A stretch of DNA of 45,308 bases from Eubacteriales bacterium (GCA_045535385.1 JAZSLN010000018.1:1-45308); one strand, 5' to 3'. Counted from the stretch's first letter, positions 1,056-37,770 are shown. Numbers and translations are program-made. Notes: generated from the letters alone by a model not told the origin.

Positions 1056-4000
1056 TTATTCATCATAATTTTCGGATTCGTCATAAACGAAAACTTCTTC
1101 TTCGAGGCCGAGATCGTCGGGTTCTTCCTCAACAATGGGTTCGAGCGCGCTCAACTCATCGTCGTACATAACCTCGTCGCCGCTCTCGAGAACGCTCTTA
1201 CCGAGCTCTTCCTCGCTGAAGCGTCTTTCATCGGGTCCGTCATCGTCGTCGGAATAATCCTTAAGAGGAATTTCGTTATCGTTCTTGTCAAGCACGCGAA
1301 CGTCAAGCGCAAGCGACTGAAGCTCCTTCGCAAGAACCTTGAACGAAGCGGGAACACCGGGGGTGGGAATATTCTGTCCCTTGACGATAGCTTCGTATGC
1401 CTTTACACGGCCCTTGATATCGTCAGACTTAACGGTAAGAATTTCCTGGAGAGTGTATGCGGCGCCGTATGCTTCGAGCGCCCAAACTTCCATTTCACCG
1501 AAACGCTGACCGCCGAACTGCGCTTTACCGCCCAAGGGCTGCTGAGTAACGAGCGAGTAGGGACCGGTAGAACGAGCGTGGATCTTATCGTCAACGAGGT
1601 GGTGGAGCTTAAGGAAGTACATATAACCGACGGTAACAGGGTTATCGAAGGGCATACCGGTACGTCCGTCGTAAAGAACGGTCTTACCGTCAACAACCTT
1701 GATAAGATTGTCGGCGCGGAGAGCTTCGAATTCGTCCTTGTTGTCGGCGATCCATTCGCGGGAGAGCTTTTCGATATAAGGCTTTCCGCTTTCGGGATCG
1801 ATATTTTCTTTATAAATAGCCTTACCGTCGGGGTTCTCATCATATCTGAGGTCGCGGTAAATATTGGCTTTTGCGAGACATTCTTCGATGTCTTTTTCGT
1901 TCGCTCCGTCGAATACGGGAGTCATTACCTTCCAGTCGAGCGCCTTTGCAGCACGGCCAAGGTGAACCTCAAGAACCTGACCGATATTCATACGGGAAGG
2001 AACGCCCAACGGGTTAAGAACGATGTCAAGAGGAGTACCGTCGGCGAGGAAGGGCATATCTTCGCTCGGAAGGATACGGGAAATAACACCCTTGTTACCG
2101 TGGCGGCCCGCCATCTTATCGCCGACAGAGATCTTTCTCTTCTGAGCGATATAAACTCTGGCAACCTTGATAACACCGGGAGCGAGGATATCACAATCAT
2201 CTCGAGAGAATACCTGAACGTCAACTACGATACCCGATTCGCCGTGAGGAAGCTTCAAGGAAGTATCACGCACTTCACGAGCCTTTTCACCGAAGATCGC
2301 ACGGAGCAATCTTTCTTCTGCGGTAAGCTCGGTTTCACCCTTGGGGGTAACCTTACCTACGAGGATATCGCCGGAATGAACTTCAGCACCGATACGAACG
2401 ATACCATCGGCATCGAGATCGCGAAGCGCGTCGTCGCCGACGTTGGGAAGCTCGCGGGTGATTTCTTCCGGACCGAGCTTGGTATCTCTGGATTCGCAGT
2501 AATATTCTTCAATATGGATAGAGGTATAAACGTCATCACGAACGAGACGCTCATTAAGAAGTACAGCGTCCTCGTAGTTATAGCCTTCCCAGGTCATAAA
2601 GCCGATAAGAACGTTCTTACCGAGCGCGACTTCGCCATGGTCGGTAGCAGGACCGTCGGCAATAACGTCGCCCGCATGGATACGCTCGCCCTTCTTAACG
2701 ATAGGACGCTGGTTTACGCAGGTACCCTGGTTGGAGCGCTTGAACTTGGTGAGGTTATATACGTCTGTACCGCCTTCGTCCTTACGAACGACAACGGTAG
2801 AGGAGGAAACGCTTTCAACGATACCGTCATTCTTACAGATAACGAGAACACCGCTGTCGTATGCAGCCTTGTATTCCATACCCGTACCGATAACGGGAGA
2901 CTCGGTGATCATAAGGGGAACTGCCTGCTTCTGCATGTTCGAACCCATGAGCGCACGAGTGTTATCGTCGTTTTCAAGGAAGGGGATCATCGCGGTAGCG
3001 ACCGAAACAACCATCTTGGGCGAAACGTCCATAAGGTCGATCTTTGCAGCCTCGAATTCGAGGATCTCGTCGCGATGACGTGCAACGACCTTACGGTTCA
3101 AGAAGTTACCGTTTTCGTCGATAGGCTCGTTAGCGGTAGCAACAACGTATTCATCTTCCGCATCAGCGGAGAGATATACAACTTCATCGGTTACGATACC
3201 GTTCTTAACGACACGGTAGGGTGCTTCGATGAAGCCGAATTTATTGATCTTCGCATAAGTAGCAAGCGAAGAAATAAGACCGATGTTAGGACCTTCGGGG
3301 GTTTCGATAGGACACATTCTGCCGTAATGGGTATAGTGAACGTCTCGAACCTCGAAGGATGCTCTATCACGCGAAAGACCGCCGGGACCGAGCGCGGAAA
3401 GTCTTCTCTTGTGGGTAAGCTCCGCGAGGGGGTTCGCCTGATCCATAAACTGGGAAAGAGGGCTCGAACCGAAGAAATCGCGGATCGCCGAAACGATAGG
3501 ACGGATGTTGATAAGCGACTGAGGAGTAACGGTATCGATATCCTGAGTAGTCATCTTTTCCTTGACGATCTTGTCCATTCTCGAGAAGCCGATACGGAGC
3601 TGGTTAAGCAAAAGCTCGCCTACCGAACGTAAACGACGGTTGCCGAGATGGTCGATATCGTCGGTTTTGCCTATTTCGTGGTAGAGACAGGTGATATAGT
3701 TGACCGATGCAAAGATATCATCGATAGTGATATGTTTGGGGATAAGCTCATCATGTGCTCTGTCGCAAGCCTTCTTGAACGCATCAACATCGGAAAGACC
3801 TACTTCGCCGATGATACGCATAAGGGGAGCGAGAGCAACATATTCGCCGAGACCTAAAACATCGTCGGAAATGCCGGTAACGGCAGAAGCGTCAACCATG
3901 TAGTTAGAGAATACCTTAACTTCAACGATTTCGCCTTCTTCCTCGACGTTGAGCCAAACCTCGCAAACACCGGCACGCTCGAGCGCTTCCGCTTCGGAAC

Positions 4001-4973: not shown

Positions 4974-5118
4974 TTGACCAATCACTCCATTCATTTTCTC
5001 CGCTTTTTCTAAGCGGGAATATCCACGGTGTTCGTTCTCCGGTGCGGAAAAACAGCACATTTTGTCATCATAGTTCAGACATTTATGGCATATCATCCGC
5101 ATTATAATGCAGTTTACT

Positions 5119-5147
5119 ATATTAACACCTTTTCAAGTGCTTGTCAA
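5119..5147 (-). promoter_or_regulatory. Putative sigma-A promoter of rpoBC
   Basis: TTGACA (5147-5142), 17-nt spacer, TAATAT (5124-5119). Confidence 0.65.
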
Positions 5148-5258
5148 GTGTTTTTTACGAATTTTCTATTGAATTTTAACAAAATCAGATTATTTTTTAT
5201 TGAATTTAGCGGAATGATGGTCTATTATATATATAATAGGTAAAGGGAGGGCGGAAAA

Positions 5259-20058: not shown

Positions 20059-20164
20059 AACAAAAGTTCCTTTCTTTAGGGTTTCCCTACCAGCGCGGAA
20101 AAGAGCCGAAAAGACAAAAACGACAAGCCCGCAGACATCGGCACGCAAAGAACGTCTGCTTATG

Positions 20165-20258
20165 TCATATCTCCCTACGGCGGCATTATCCGCATCAGGT
20201 TCATTGGGTATATTCTCAGCCGTGCGTTAAAATTTCACACAGCACCCCATCATAAATA
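20165..20258 (-). ncRNA. TPP (THI-box) riboswitch
   Basis: Minus strand GGGGTGC...GGCTGAGA.TATACCC...GAACCTGAT.CGGATAATGCCG.CGTAGGGA matches the canonical aptamer core; upstream of thiT. Confidence 0.97.
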
Positions 20259-20262
20259 TATT

Positions 20263-34765: not shown

Positions 34766-35338
34766 ATGAAATCTCTTGTAAATAAACTTAGTTCCATGGG
34801 TTGGCGGATCAGCGTTGCCGAATCCTGCACCGGCGGTACGGTATCTAAAATGATAACCGATATACCCGGCGCGAGCTCGGTTTTCGATATGGCTGTTACG
34901 ACCTATTCGAACGAAGCGAAAATAAAATTACTCGGCGTAAGCCCCGAAACGCTCGCTCAATACGGTGCCGTTTCCGAACAGACCGCGCGCGAGATGGCAA
35001 CGGGTGTCAAGGCACTTTCGAACGCGAATATTGCCGTTTCGGTTACCGGAATCGCAGGTCCGTCAAGCGACGGAAGCGAAAAACCGGTCGGAATGGTCTG
35101 TATAGGCATCGCAACCGAAGAGCGTTGCTTCTCCTCGACCTTTCTTTTTACCGGAAGCCGCGCCGAAATACGCAGACTTTCGGCAAAAATGGCGCTGAGA
35201 ATGGCACTTGAGGAAATAGGCGGGGTCGAAAAAAGGGAAAAACTCAAGCTTTTCCGCCGCCCGAAGAAAGAAAACGGCGCAAATAAAACGAACGAAATGA
35301 AAAAAGTGAAAAAAACACTTGACTTTCGGAAAAAATGA
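34766..35338 (+). CDS. pncC: CinA C-terminal domain protein / NMN amidohydrolase PncC
   Basis: VAESCTGG, PGASS, YSNEAK..LLGV, GAVSE.TA.EMA, SVTGIAGP, KPVG; ATG 34766 after GGAGG. Confidence 0.88.
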   Translation: MKSLVNKLSSMGWRISVAESCTGGTVSKMITDIPGASSVFDMAVTTYSNEAKIKLLGVSPETLAQYGAVSEQTAREMATGVKALSNANIAVSVTGIAGPSSDGSEKPVGMVCIGIATEERCFSSTFLFTGSRAEIRRLSAKMALRMALEEIGGVEKREKLKLFRRPKKENGANKTNEMKKVKKTLDFRKK

Positions 35339-35347
35339 TGATAGAAT
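35319..35347 (+). promoter_or_regulatory. Sigma-A promoter of tRNA-Gln
   Basis: TTGACT, 17 nt, TG-extended TAGAAT. Confidence 0.7.
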
Positions 35348-35379: not shown

Positions 35380-35454
35380 AGCGGGATTGTGTAACGGTTA
35401 GCACGACAGACTCTGACTCTGTTTGTTGGGGTTCGAATCCCTATCCCGCTGCCA
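35380..35454 (+). tRNA. tRNA-Gln (anticodon CTG)
   Basis: Cloverleaf: AGCGGGA/TCCCGCT acceptor stem, GTGT/GCAC D-arm, ACAGA-CT-CTG-AC-TCTGT anticodon arm, GGTTCGAATCC T-arm, encoded CCA. Confidence 0.97.
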
Positions 35455-35491
35455 GAAAACGACAAGTTTCGACAGAAACTTTTCGTTATCA

Positions 35492-35683
35492 GTTATATTC
35501 GCCTTACGGCGAGTTATATGCACCTTCGGTGCGTGATATTTGCTTCGCAAGTGATATGCCTGCGGGCGTGAGTGGCGAATATAATATCACGCTTTTGCAG
35601 TATCTCGCCTATGGCGAGGTATGCAAAGCATATCACATTTTGCGCAAGCAAAATATATCACTCCGTCGTAGACGGAATATCAC
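35492..35683. repeat. Palindromic heptamer-plus-hairpin array (4x GTKATAT then 4x ATATCAC)
   Basis: GTTATAT at 35492 and 35513, GTGATAT at 35533 and 35551, ATATCAC at 35584, 35630, 35655 and 35677, each neighbouring pair within an arm separated by exactly one hairpin. Confidence 0.9.
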
Positions 35684-35759
35684 TAAAAACTAACGATTAC
35701 GTAAGAGTTCGAATTCATACGCAAAAACAGCAAAAATATCTTTTTTGTAGCCCATAGCC

Positions 35760-35796
35760 AAAACAAAAGCCATCCTATCGGATGGTTTTTTGTTTT
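35760..35796 (+). terminator. Long A/T-flanked hairpin, probable bidirectional terminator
   Basis: aaaacaaaagccatcc-tatc-ggatggttttttgtttt. Confidence 0.7.
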
Positions 35797-35929
35797 GTTT
35801 GTACGTTATGAAAGGGATTCGAACGGGTCGGTAGCGAATGATGTGCCGGGGGGGCACATCAGAGCCGACCCTGACGCGGGGTCCCCGCAAAACAAGTTTT
35901 GTGGGGTTTTACCAGCCCGCAGGCGAGAA

Positions 35930-35949
35930 CGAATCCCTATCCCGCTGCC
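35930..35949 (+). repeat. 20-bp direct repeat of the tRNA-Gln 3' end (att-like)
   Basis: cgaatccctatcccgctgcc, identical to 35434-35453. Confidence 0.92.
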
Positions 35950-36066: not shown

Positions 36067-37770
36067 ATGAAAAAAGTTTTAAGTCTTGTTCTTATTCTTA
36101 CGATGCTGTTATCCGCTGTGCCCTTTTCCGCATCGGCATTCACGTTTGACAACACCGCCGAATACGTATATATCGGCAACACAAAGCTGGTCGACGGTCA
36201 ATATTTGGCGCAGGGCTCGACAACGCCCGTTACTTCGCGCCCGTCGGGAGGATATGCGCATTTTTCCGACGGAACGCTTTATCTTGACAACTTCACCTTT
36301 AACGGGGTCGGATATGAATTCGGCGAGTCGGGCGGATTCGAACACGAAGGAATCACCTACCTCGATATCAAAACCGCTTCCATTTACAGCCCCGGAGACA
36401 TATGTATAAGCGTTTCGGGCAAAAATTCCATAAAAAACACCTACAAAAAACCTTCAAGTACCGATACGGTTATTTATCTCGATTTTATCGTTGACATATT
36501 TGTCGAGGGATATGTAAGCATTTACGGCGATGACGGAGCGCTTCATCTTAACAGCGATAACGGTTTGGTCTGCAGACCCGACCCCTCGGATTATTCTACC
36601 GACGACAACTCATATACGATAGCCTGCTCGGAATTTATTGCAAAAAACACCAACAATTCCATCGACGTAAGCGCTTACAGCCTAAAAACCGAACTCAACA
36701 TAAACTGCAAAAAGTTTTTTGTTGCGGCATACGACGGAATACGTATTGAACACGGAGATATAGAAGCCGGGTACCCTTCCGCGCCCACTTTGAATTTCAA
36801 CGGCGGAGATGCCACGGTATACGGTGTCAATGCCATAATGCTCAGCGACGTATATGATGTCGTGGGTGAAGAGTGTGTCGTGAATGCGACCGATACAAAA
36901 TTACGCATCTATTCCGGCCACCTCGGCATATCTGCCGGAACTTTCAAGATTCACAGCGGCGAGGTTTTTGTCGACGCGAAAACCTATTCACTCTCAGGAC
37001 TTCTTTGGCTTGACGACAGTATGGAGGTTACCGAAGGCTCTCCCTTTGAAAATCAATTCGCCGTCGCTCCCAAAAACCGTATTACCGCCGATTGCGATAT
37101 CAACTCCGATGGAAACGTGAATCTTTTCGACTATACTACCCTTAAATCGATCTGCGTGAAAAACGCGTCCGCTGCGGAAAGCGTTATGAAAAAATCCGAC
37201 GTCAACGGCGATGGAAAAACCAATATGTTTGACTATATGCTCGTGAAATCGCGCTATTTCAATCCTCCCATGGATGTTTCGTCGCTTGAGGGAATATCCT
37301 TCGATCTTTTGGCTGAATATATCACCGAGACGGGTTTTTATTCCTCCTCCGACAAGACCTATTCCATCAAGGCTACCGATGCCGTTTCGGGAACTCCTCC
37401 CTTCACTTATGCACTCAAAACCGATACAAACCGCTCGAAGATCATAGTTTCCGCCTCCACAAAAAATTCAAACGGTGATACCGTATCCGCCGAGCTGACT
37501 ATGACAAGAGAAAATATGGTCGGCACCGTCAAAACCACCGTTACGGGAAGCGAAAACCTGAGCGCGACATCGTCGTTGATCATAAACGAATGCTGTGTAA
37601 CCGAATTGGACCTGGTCGGCTTCGCTTGCTCCGACACGGGAAGCTATACGTCAGAAAGCTTCGAAGCCGAAACCGAGGCTCTTATTCGCAACGCATTGTT
37701 GCGTATTGATGAAAATTGGCCTCATGAAATCTACGTCGCCTTGTCAGACCTCGGTTTCCTGCATTTTTAA
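36067..37770 (+). CDS. Secreted protein with beta-rich N-terminal region and internal dockerin
   Basis: Signal peptide ending ASA; GTLYLDNF adhesin-like segment; CDINSDGNVNLFDY and SDVNGDGKTNMFDY duplicated loops. Confidence 0.8.
   Translation: MKKVLSLVLILTMLLSAVPFSASAFTFDNTAEYVYIGNTKLVDGQYLAQGSTTPVTSRPSGGYAHFSDGTLYLDNFTFNGVGYEFGESGGFEHEGITYLDIKTASIYSPGDICISVSGKNSIKNTYKKPSSTDTVIYLDFIVDIFVEGYVSIYGDDGALHLNSDNGLVCRPDPSDYSTDDNSYTIACSEFIAKNTNNSIDVSAYSLKTELNINCKKFFVAAYDGIRIEHGDIEAGYPSAPTLNFNGGDATVYGVNAIMLSDVYDVVGEECVVNATDTKLRIYSGHLGISAGTFKIHSGEVFVDAKTYSLSGLLWLDDSMEVTEGSPFENQFAVAPKNRITADCDINSDGNVNLFDYTTLKSICVKNASAAESVMKKSDVNGDGKTNMFDYMLVKSRYFNPPMDVSSLEGISFDLLAEYITETGFYSSSDKTYSIKATDAVSGTPPFTYALKTDTNRSKIIVSASTKNSNGDTVSAELTMTRENMVGTVKTTVTGSENLSATSSLIINECCVTELDLVGFACSDTGSYTSESFEAETEALIRNALLRIDENWPHEIYVALSDLGFLHF

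Follow-up and report, generated by a model that had tools for sequence, protein, structure and literature searches.

Two convergent Gut-1 arms form a dispersed, polar, noncoding cassette of gut Clostridia

RESULTS

A heptamer-hairpin cassette directly downstream of a tRNA-Gln gene

The sequence analyzed here, hereafter called the window, is a 45,308-nt stretch of GCA_045535385.1 (JAZSLN010000018.1), from a Eubacteriales bacterium whose assembly, G000, comprises 1.65 Mb in 124 contigs and is 74% complete; all positions are those of the whole window. Behind the CCA end of a tRNA-Gln gene lies a noncoding cassette in which two arms, A and B, each made of a repeated heptamer alternating with hairpins, flank a short center (Table 1). 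A preliminary description of the window had spelled out this heptamer-hairpin succession directly 3' of tRNA-Gln, and the sequence is exactly as written there. The pattern exceeds chance by heptamer, spacer, and folding statistics: GTGATAT occurs 19 times in the window versus 3.8 expected (largest shuffle, 10), with 6 of the 19 within 35533 to 35683, and the folding z-scores against shuffles are −8.9 (RNA) and −9.6 (DNA) on the + strand and −7.4 (RNA) and −8.4 (DNA) on the − strand. Another GTGATAT pair, at 3691 and 3727 (36 nt apart), was rejected as an element; it lies in ordinary sequence with no flanking hairpins.

Table 1. Parts of the cassette copy in the window and the features next to it
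Feature	Position	Strand	Remarks
Cassette copy as a whole	35455-35760		Starts at the base after the tRNA-Gln CCA
Arm A, tRNA-proximal: GTTATAT, GTTATAT, GTGATAT, GTGATAT and three perfect hairpins	35492-35557	+	Gut-1 match on the + strand; GTTATAT starts at 35492 and 35513, GTGATAT at 35533 and 35551; hairpins 35499-35512 (5 bp, TTAC), 35520-35532 (5 bp, TTC), 35540-35550 (4 bp, TTC)
X, 5' strand of long-range helix P0, TTATATTCGCC	35493-35503	+	Also the 5' strand of the first local hairpin
Center, 26 nt: small hairpin (35558-35567), linker, X''	35558-35583	+	
X'', complementary to X, GGCGAATATAA	35574-35584	+	
Arm B, distal: four ATATCAC and three hairpins	35584-35683	+	Gut-1 match on the − strand, below gathering score; ATATCAC starts at 35584, 35630, 35655 and 35677; hairpins 35591-35629 (39 nt), 35637-35654 (7 bp, GCAA), 35662-35676 (6 bp, GTA)
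H0: 13-pair hairpin, one mismatch, loop GACA, right after CCA	35458-35487	+	Read from the sequence
Right flank with GAGTTCGAATTCATACGC and AAAATATCTTTTTTGTAGCCCATAG	35697-35760	+	Common to part of the other copies and species
Intrinsic-terminator-like hairpin and T run	35765-35800	+	Native tRNA-Gln terminator
tRNA-Gln, anticodon CTG	35380-35454	+	
Sigma-70-like promoter before tRNA-Gln: TTGACT, 17 nt, TAGAAT, with TG	35319-35347	+	Consensus scan alone

In the window, H0 is a degenerate version of the terminator-like hairpin that precedes the first arm elsewhere, without a clean T run; a perfect hairpin homologous to it is present at loci L114 and L116. The right flank (35697 to 35760) is 87.5% identical to L034 and L050, and the segment 35675 to 35799 is 88% identical to L055, while other copies have different flanks. 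The hairpin that follows is taken as the native tRNA-Gln terminator because it stands directly after CCA in relatives that have no cassette.

Both arms match the Rfam family Gut-1

Arm A matches Rfam Gut-1 (RF01706) at 35490 to 35562 on the + strand with 63.9 bits, against a gathering score of 50. Arm B matches the same model at 35579 to 35685 on the − strand with 43.6 bits, falling below the gathering score because of its 39-nt hairpin. In an Rfam search of the element, no other family came near the arms' scores. Alignment to the model consensus and to the seed alignment gave for arm A the three hairpins split by GUGAAAU-like linkers that are characteristic of Gut-1, and one seed sequence starts almost as arm A does (PMC2864571, supplement seed alignment). 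The window element is thus a member of a known family; since arm A scores above the gathering score, the family already has a name, contrary to the preliminary description, which could assign none.

Gut-1 was described by Weinberg et al. in 2010 as a probable noncoding RNA (ncRNA) from the "human gut only," and the parts of the paper available to us give no function (PMC2864571). The published form is a single 77-column unit obtained from gut metagenomes on the basis of covariation, and its Rfam type is "Gene; sRNA" (small RNA) (PMC2864571). Beyond the 2010 paper, the literature that we found on Gut-1 is a 2026 paper using it as a folding benchmark. In the text passages and seed alignment compared, and subject to the authors' Additional file 1, we found no printed description of a paired, polar, tRNA-linked Gut-1 cassette or of DNA-type loops in it.

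The 39-nt hairpin of arm B is itself a hairpin inside a hairpin, the inner part of which (TACCTCGCC...GGCGAGATA) resembles the first hairpin type of arm A. An insert matching this inner part is also present at C107:1089-1145 of G000, and units seem able to land inside the loops of other units.

The cassette is dispersed among gut Clostridia

G000 contains 34 Gut-1 matches at an E value of ≤1, 11 of them above the cutoff. Many lie within about 300 nt of contig ends, and many come as a + match followed by a − match 20 to 100 nt away. A motif-blind scan of the same genome for a 7-mer, a hairpin, and the same 7-mer again ranked ATATCAC (26), ATATCAT (17), and ATATAAC (9) highest; the next word reached 6, and the maximum in a shuffled genome was 2. 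Moreover, of 122 spacers that separate neighboring heptamers of the family, 42 form a perfect, end-anchored stem of at least 4 bp, compared to 0.5 (maximum, 4) for shuffled spacers. Many extragenic copies in inverted pairs are a hallmark of repetitive extragenic palindromes (REPs), bacterial interspersed mosaic elements (BIMEs), and REP doublets forming hairpins (REPINs), and the element shows it. The REP/REPIN-like element proposed at the outset is in this respect supported, the object being noncoding, two-armed, and present in many copies.

Of the genomes sampled, those with Gut-1 matches were 22 of 24 from the genus and 7 of 16 from other families of the order, a single genome having at most 49 matches. 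A pattern scan of one genome per species returned at least 123 places, 91 of them with hairpin-forming sequence in both spacers. Among the matches listed, the record titles are almost all of gut metagenome-assembled genomes and name Oscillospiraceae, Acutalibacteraceae, Ruminococcus, Christensenellaceae, Eubacteriales, or Clostridia. In viral contigs, hairpin spacers were present in 3 of 119 pattern matches, versus 91 of 123 in genomes. Altogether, our data establish the element as a dispersed, polar, noncoding cassette of gut Clostridia whose core consists of two convergent Gut-1 instances.

A phage or plasmid origin was rejected: phages gave one weak match (74.5% over 105 nt) and plasmids none. 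The phage match, to arm A, is at 5074 to 5178 of MT835815.1, an unannotated, metagenomic fecal "Bacteriophage sp." record. Two IMG/VR contigs (L274 and L308) also carry Gut-1-like heptamer-hairpin units. The units in viral records may be prophage borders or mis-binned host DNA.

Copies share a fixed order of parts and a covarying long-range helix

In the printed copies, the parts follow one another as H0, arm A, center, arm B, and flank, usually with a terminator-like hairpin last. Outside the window, H0 is typically a long perfect hairpin with A- and T-run ends; in 15 of the 19 oriented elements, it lies directly against the first heptamer. In the printed copies its T run overlaps that heptamer, which leaves no space for a promoter before arm A.

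The last 10 to 14 nt of the center (X'') are the complement of a segment, X, that comprises the first heptamer and the 5' strand of the hairpin next to it; the resulting helix, P0, is at least 10 nt long in 19 elements (for the window copy, see Table 1). P0 exists in at least six sequence versions, e.g., TTTTATTCGCC, AAATCCACCC, ATATCCGTTCC, TATATTCGTTCC, and ATGATATAAATCC; since all of them pair, the helix covaries. P0 and the first local hairpin are mutually exclusive because both use the same strand. Covariation was read from heptamer-anchored parsing, as a MAFFT alignment of 35 arms misplaced the hairpins.

Arm B carries the reverse-complement heptamers, but its hairpins are unlike those of arm A, and it is therefore not a plain inverted copy. 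We counted at least nine heptamer types (GTGATAT, GTTATAT, ATGATAT, GTGAAAT, ATGAAAT, GCGATAT, ATGATGT, GTGAAGT, and ATGAAGC), several of which occur within one genome and most of which are matched by their complement in arm B. Within an element, a left heptamer and the reverse complement of its right counterpart share on average 6.26 of 7 positions, compared to 5.44 for permuted pairs (standard deviation, 0.10; maximum, 5.80). Among 129 nested heptamer pairs, 68 are fully complementary; at position 3 (G/T), 29 are mismatched versus 10 with a compensated T-A. Heptamers are spaced by 16 to 29 nt with no helical phasing, which argues against a face-aligned protein array on duplex DNA. In the printed copies the two ends carry the outermost heptamer and an adjoining TC in inverted orientation to each other, and the same word is also repeated inside the element.

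Two variants of this layout were seen. Behind one tRNA, two cassettes of different heptamer types stand in tandem in L034 (genome G011; 1480 to 1930) and in L114 (genome G046). In L138 (genome G017) the arm order is reversed, with an ATCTCAT/ATATCAT arm first and an ATGATAT arm second.

The preliminary description had drawn the window copy as a ladder of three consecutive four-way junctions, held by nested heptamer pairs and closed by tcgtta and taacga. Such a ladder is possible and has real support from the matching of heptamer types between the arms, although its details are leaky. In the window, each of the two outer heptamer pairs contains a T-C mismatch. Energy minimization predicts a different fold (−42.2 for the ladder versus −88.5 kcal/mol as RNA and −25.3 versus −53.8 kcal/mol as DNA), a comparison that is biased against the ladder because the center and the inside of the 39-nt hairpin were left unpaired and the model ignores coaxial stacking. 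The ladder competes with P0, because in P0 the first heptamer of arm A pairs with the center and not with the outermost heptamer of arm B. These two global folds exclude each other, and comparison with other copies favors P0 over the ladder. Of the proposed closure, both words are present (35483 to 35488 and 35691 to 35696); they have no counterpart in the other printed copies, and the 5' half belongs to H0.

Cassettes stand downstream of tRNA genes in a fixed orientation

In G000, 18 tRNA units are followed by 150 nt or more of sequence, and at 8 of these ends at least two heptamer-hairpin units lie in the first 260 nt; all eight tRNA-linked elements lie downstream, 31 to 76 nt from the tRNA. 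In two related genomes, G011 and G027, 24 of 60 arm matches fall within 150 nt downstream of a tRNA or transfer-messenger RNA (tmRNA) gene and none fall upstream. The nearer arm (30 to 62 nt) is on the tRNA strand in 16 of 17 cases, and the farther arm (126 to 138 nt) is on the other strand in 7 of 7. Where tRNA genes form an operon, the element follows the last tRNA only, and the P0-bearing arm is the proximal one in 6 of 6 cases. Among named genomes elsewhere, a tRNA lies within the 300- to 400-nt flank of 15 of 91 matches, always with the element downstream. The remaining copies follow ordinary genes, encoding a MalK-like ATPase, HtpG, an alpha-amylase, a carboxylase subunit, and an acetyltransferase; by a crude open reading frame (ORF) rule, a co-oriented ORF ends 48 to 128 nt upstream of the element in 6 of 12 cases.

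We compared the tRNA-Gln locus across 15 genomes of the genus, including that of the window (15 loci; tRNA 90 to 100% identical; at least 250 nt downstream). An element, in five heptamer types overall, lies within about 350 nt at eight loci, and none is present at the other seven. At L111, L115, and L127, CCA is followed at once by the terminator that stands at 35765 to 35790 in the window; L111 is the best match to the window's flanking DNA, with 83% identity. Relative to these three loci, about 300 nt are inserted in the window between CCA and the native terminator. When filled and empty sites are compared, a 5-bp duplication, AAAAC, is possible, in A-rich sequence of genomes that differ by about 17%. 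In G011, three near-identical cassettes follow tRNA-Gln, tRNA-Ser, and tRNA-Ala, with the similarity running from the base after CCA to mid-flank, suggesting that they were recently copied or gene-converted.

A 20-nt copy of the tRNA-Gln 3' end is located at 35930 to 35949 of the window. As a far border or att repeat of the cassette it was rejected, being absent from the other element-bearing tRNA and tmRNA loci compared; furthermore, in L134 and L136 the cassette lies beyond the pseudo-end and not before it. Because the window copy alone has such a repeat among element-bearing tRNA loci, we assign it to a separate event. It ends a segment of about 130 nt after the native terminator (35812 to 35949) that begins with the complement of the tRNA-Gln T arm (GGGATTCGAAC). 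The same segment follows tRNA-Gln in L111, L115, L119, L127, L134, L136, L137, and L138, and extra copies of the tRNA-end fragment are present in L115 and L127. The segment looks like the scar of integrase-type insertions at tRNA-Gln or a conserved tRNA-like structure. Within it, a 31-nt stretch (35878 to 35908), another small dispersed repeat, recurs with 94 to 97% identity at C20:6252-6282 and at the ends of contigs C66 and C57 (4 to 35) of G000, and also in L047 of G011. Two further tRNA genes of G000 have copies of their own 3' ends with no heptamer array: tRNA-Met (C27:14253-14328; 28 nt, 217 nt downstream) and tRNA-Ser (C53:17606-17696; 18 nt, 159 nt downstream). These are probably att scars.

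Stems are conserved and loops follow a DNA-type consensus

Stems and loops were evaluated in 261 units from 97 distinct arms of three genomes; detection required four perfect outer pairs. As had been noticed in the window copy, hairpins persist although their sequences vary: the 261 units contain 194 distinct hairpins, and their stem pairs are Watson-Crick (1,442) with 13 exceptions. A C-G pair closes the loop in 231 of the 261. Of the loops of 3 to 4 nt, read in the Gut-1 direction, 173 have the form T..C, 1 is G..A, and 57 are of other kinds, an extreme skew that agrees with the bias toward GNA and GNNA loops on the ATATCAC strand that the preliminary description had pointed out. On that strand, the window loops are GTAA, GAA, GAA, GCAA, and GTA, the exception being the terminal loop of the 39-nt hairpin, and C-GNA-G or C-GNNA-G is present in 170 of the 261 hairpins (strict GCGN(1-2)AGC in 92).

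Triloops prevail over tetraloops (148 versus 94). Among the loops listed, tetraloops that do not fit GNRA (GTCA, 10; GTTA, 8; GATA, 7; GACA, 2; total, 27) are nearly as common as those that do (GCAA, 13; GTAA, 11; GAAA, 7; GTGA, 2; total, 33). The near parity of these classes and the dominance of triloops argue against GNRA loops of an RNA. In the Rfam direction, the loops read U-N-C or U-N-N-C in 173 of 231 cases and fit neither UNCG nor GNRA.

DNA mini-hairpins of this kind have been characterized. A melting temperature of 76.5°C is given for d(GCGAAGC) and d(GCGAAAGC), versus 39°C for r(GCGAAAGC), and mini-hairpins GCGNAGC and GCGNNAGC occur in single-stranded DNA (ssDNA) initiation signals, namely, the phage G4 origin, ssiA, and N4 promoters (PMC13037366). 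The C-G closing pair of DNA mini-hairpins is treated in PMC3201870. Judged from sequence, the retained hairpins and their GNA/GNNA bias on the ATATCAC strand would fit mini-hairpins formed in ssDNA.

Single mismatches in 474 stems comprise 12 G-T and 14 A-C (22 and 23 in an earlier, looser count), and a terminator control shows a mild excess (126 versus 102). As the control is itself nearly symmetric, this test has low power and is uninformative. With regard to promoters, a consensus scan of the window found none adjoining the arms; in the conserved right flank, a consensus scan revealed no convincing one, and inspection by eye showed that the would-be −10 is not conserved between copies.

Candidate mobilizing enzymes do not track the cassette

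G000 encodes a 174-amino-acid protein in which an HUH-like motif and a candidate catalytic tyrosine can be read. It matches the REP-associated tyrosine transposase (RAYT) model with an E value of 8e-17 and 61.4 bits, under the curated cutoff of 80, and Pfam Y1_Tnp with 23 bits. Relatives of this protein occur in 7 of 41 related genomes; none was found in G011, G018, G026, G027, and G035, each of which has 29 to 49 Gut-1 matches, and G033 has seven RAYT-like genes but one Gut-1 match. Pfam Y1_Tnp (PF01797) is present in 13 of the 41 genomes, with no match in G018, G027, and G035 and a 49-position fragment in G011. Heptamer scans of G000 listed no family array on C3, the contig of the RAYT-like gene. 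A GTAG-type tetranucleotide before a single conserved palindrome was not found in the element, which consists of heptamers and the many different hairpins counted above. On co-occurrence across the 41 genomes, RAYT and IS200 were rejected as mobilizers, and the HUH recombinase that the preliminary description had imagined acting in trans found no support.

At C3:5519-6299 (L091, 1134 to 1974), the RAYT-like gene is accompanied by an inverted partial copy covering its first 75 codons, which is 84% identical and overlaps the gene by about 50 nt.

Among the ORFs beside and between copies in three genomes, an autonomous parent with a transposase between the same ends was not seen; the ORFs beside copies encode a dockerin-like surface protein and other ordinary products. 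Next to the window copy, the ORF at 36067 to 37770 matches Pfam Dockerin_1. An ORF beside the copy in L003 (1685 to 2866) ends, by eye, in a dockerin-like repeat, and one beside the copy in L043 (1895 to 3076) resembles a secreted surface protein. Elsewhere in the window, a thiamine pyrophosphate (TPP) riboswitch is located at 20154 to 20259 on the − strand (65.2 bits).

DISCUSSION

A structured repeat that may act as DNA

The interpretation that we favor, and to which we give about an even chance, is that the cassette is a REP/BIME-like structured repeat that works and persists as DNA rather than as a trans-acting sRNA. In such a scheme, a single-stranded state of either strand, or extrusion from the duplex, would expose one arm's row of C-GNA-G and C-GNNA-G mini-hairpins, which would be very stable and spaced by an identical heptamer. 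The matched heptamers of arms A and B could zip the arms together. Copies would sit where transcription units end, whether behind tRNA or tmRNA genes or behind ordinary ones, and a host or other activity would copy or gene-convert cassettes between such ends.

Several observations weigh against this interpretation. Hairpins that are kept while their sequences change fit RNA equally as well as ssDNA, and both Rfam and the Gut-1 authors file the motif as a likely ncRNA (PMC2864571). The sole T-run terminator on the + strand lies after the window cassette, and since H0 is degenerate there, transcription from the tRNA-Gln promoter could run through this copy. Some hairpins before arm A have GAAA or GGAA loops on the strand of the gene, as RNA terminators do. 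The polarity toward protein-coding neighbors is loose rather than strict, at the 6 of 12 given by the crude ORF rule. Moreover, the RAYT and Y1 searches of 41 genomes and the neighboring ORFs identified no enzyme that moves or uses the element, and the comparison of filled and empty sites demonstrated no target-site duplication at the window copy.

Alternative explanations

A transcribed, structured RNA is the strongest competitor, although we regard it as a distinctly less probable account. The RNA could be a 3' trailer made by read-through from the tRNA or upstream gene and folded as the ladder or through P0, or it could be one or two sRNAs whose single-stranded GUGAUAU-type linkers bind a protein or pair with the other arm. 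Covariation is the ground on which Gut-1 was defined as a probable ncRNA (PMC2864571), and the covariation of P0 in its six or more versions, like the matched heptamers, needs a single strand that is possibly RNA. The proximal arm has the Gut-1 direction on the tRNA strand (the 16 of 17 cases in G011 and G027), and on the + strand of the window no T-run terminator is reached before the cassette has ended. On the other hand, loops that in the Rfam direction belong to neither of the familiar RNA classes are not what an RNA would lead one to expect. Most copies have a strong terminator-like hairpin that runs up to the first heptamer and leaves no room for a promoter between the two, and neither the scan nor the reading of copies gave a convincing promoter in the right flank. 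G-U pairs are as rare as A-C mismatches, a point of low power. Furthermore, because the arm pair is convergent, a single transcript always carries one arm in the anti-Gut-1 direction.

It is unlikely that the cassette is a miniature inverted-repeat transposable element (MITE)-like transposon whose arms are arrays of double-stranded binding sites for a transposase or recombinase and whose insertion is targeted behind tRNA genes and terminators. Such an element would account for words that are direct within an arm and inverted between two unlike arms, for outermost units that are inverted repeats of each other, and for the fixed polarity to the tRNA with the P0-bearing arm proximal. The filled and empty sites at the same tRNA-Gln, the near-identical copies at three tRNAs of G011, and the possible AAAAC duplication also speak for it, the last being only possible in A-rich sequence of diverged genomes. 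However, duplex binding sites leave perfect palindromic spacers with strand-specific loops unexplained, the heptamer spacing is unphased, and at least nine heptamer types, several per genome, would each need their own protein. No autonomous copy was found among the ORFs near copies, which are ordinary or encode surface proteins.

A REPIN proper, i.e., a pair of REP-like units mobilized as ssDNA by a RAYT or IS200-type HUH Y1 transposase, as the preliminary description preferred, is highly improbable: the two-armed inverted layout with GNA loops and the RAYT-like protein of G000 point toward it, and the subthreshold score of that protein, the poor co-occurrence of RAYT-like and Y1_Tnp genes with Gut-1, the lack of a listed array on C3, and the absent GTAG hallmark before a single hairpin point away from it.

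Implications

Within the DNA interpretation, we raise as a long shot that Gut-1 would be not an sRNA but a chromosomal ssDNA signal, such that either unwound strand presents C-GNA-G mini-hairpins resistant to single-stranded-DNA-binding protein (SSB) and serves as a landing or priming site or as a supercoil sink. If so, the cassette could act as a site similar to ssi or primosome assembly sites, restarting replication after conflict with transcription, or alternatively could absorb supercoils at the ends of heavily transcribed units such as tRNA, tmRNA, and other genes.

Gut-1 has been an orphan motif of Rfam since 2010, known from uncultivated gut bacteria. The motif can now be placed in genomes, with a copy number, a preferred address behind tRNA and tmRNA genes, and a full architecture in which a hairpin, a closed arm, an inverted arm, and a flank follow one another. 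Its loop signature argues for DNA over RNA, and the orphan alignment is thereby turned into testable questions. The case is also a warning that DNA structures may be among the "RNA motifs" that covariation has brought to light.

Comparison with known systems

The REPs, BIMEs, and REPINs of Proteobacteria are short extragenic palindromes that occur in many copies at the 3' ends of transcription units and in inverted combinations and that are associated with a RAYT transposase. The cassette resembles them in its inverted combinations of units, its single-strand hairpin form, and the likeness of copies within a genome. It differs in that REP/BIME/REPIN units have one conserved hairpin with GTAG, whereas here each arm has three to four different hairpins with a conserved heptamer between them; in addition, no RAYT tracks the element, and its host is a Firmicute.

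Transposons of the Tn7 and Mu types have multisite, asymmetric ends. Like such ends and like MITEs, the cassette has words that are direct within an end and inverted between ends, unlike ends, and a fixed orientation behind a conserved gene. In contrast to them, it has no transposase found and no duplication demonstrated, its words are only 7 nt long, and its palindromic spacers are selected.

STAXI is a small structured unit repeated in tandem; its authors used loop identity as the criterion for choosing between ssDNA and RNA and judged it to be RNA (PMC2864571). The cassette shares the tandem repetition of a small structured unit and the argument from loops. STAXI units, however, as described in the portions of that paper considered, are pseudoknots with UUCG loops beside DNA-handling genes, while here the loop argument points to DNA and the neighbors are ordinary genes.

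With the DNA mini-hairpins GCGNAGC and GCGNNAGC, the element shares the consensus of loop and closing pair in the 170 of its 261 hairpins mentioned above. Those signals, according to the portions available, are single sites in phage or plasmid origins recognized by a primase or polymerase (PMC13037366), whereas the element forms chromosomal arrays of three to four mini-hairpins per strand.

The closest relation is to Gut-1 as represented in Rfam, which likewise has three short hairpins spaced by GUGAAAU- or GUGAUAU-type words, as in arm A of the window. Compared to the published motif, the Gut-1 unit is here one half of a convergent pair within a larger polar cassette, of which a genome contains tens of copies, frequently right behind tRNA or tmRNA genes.

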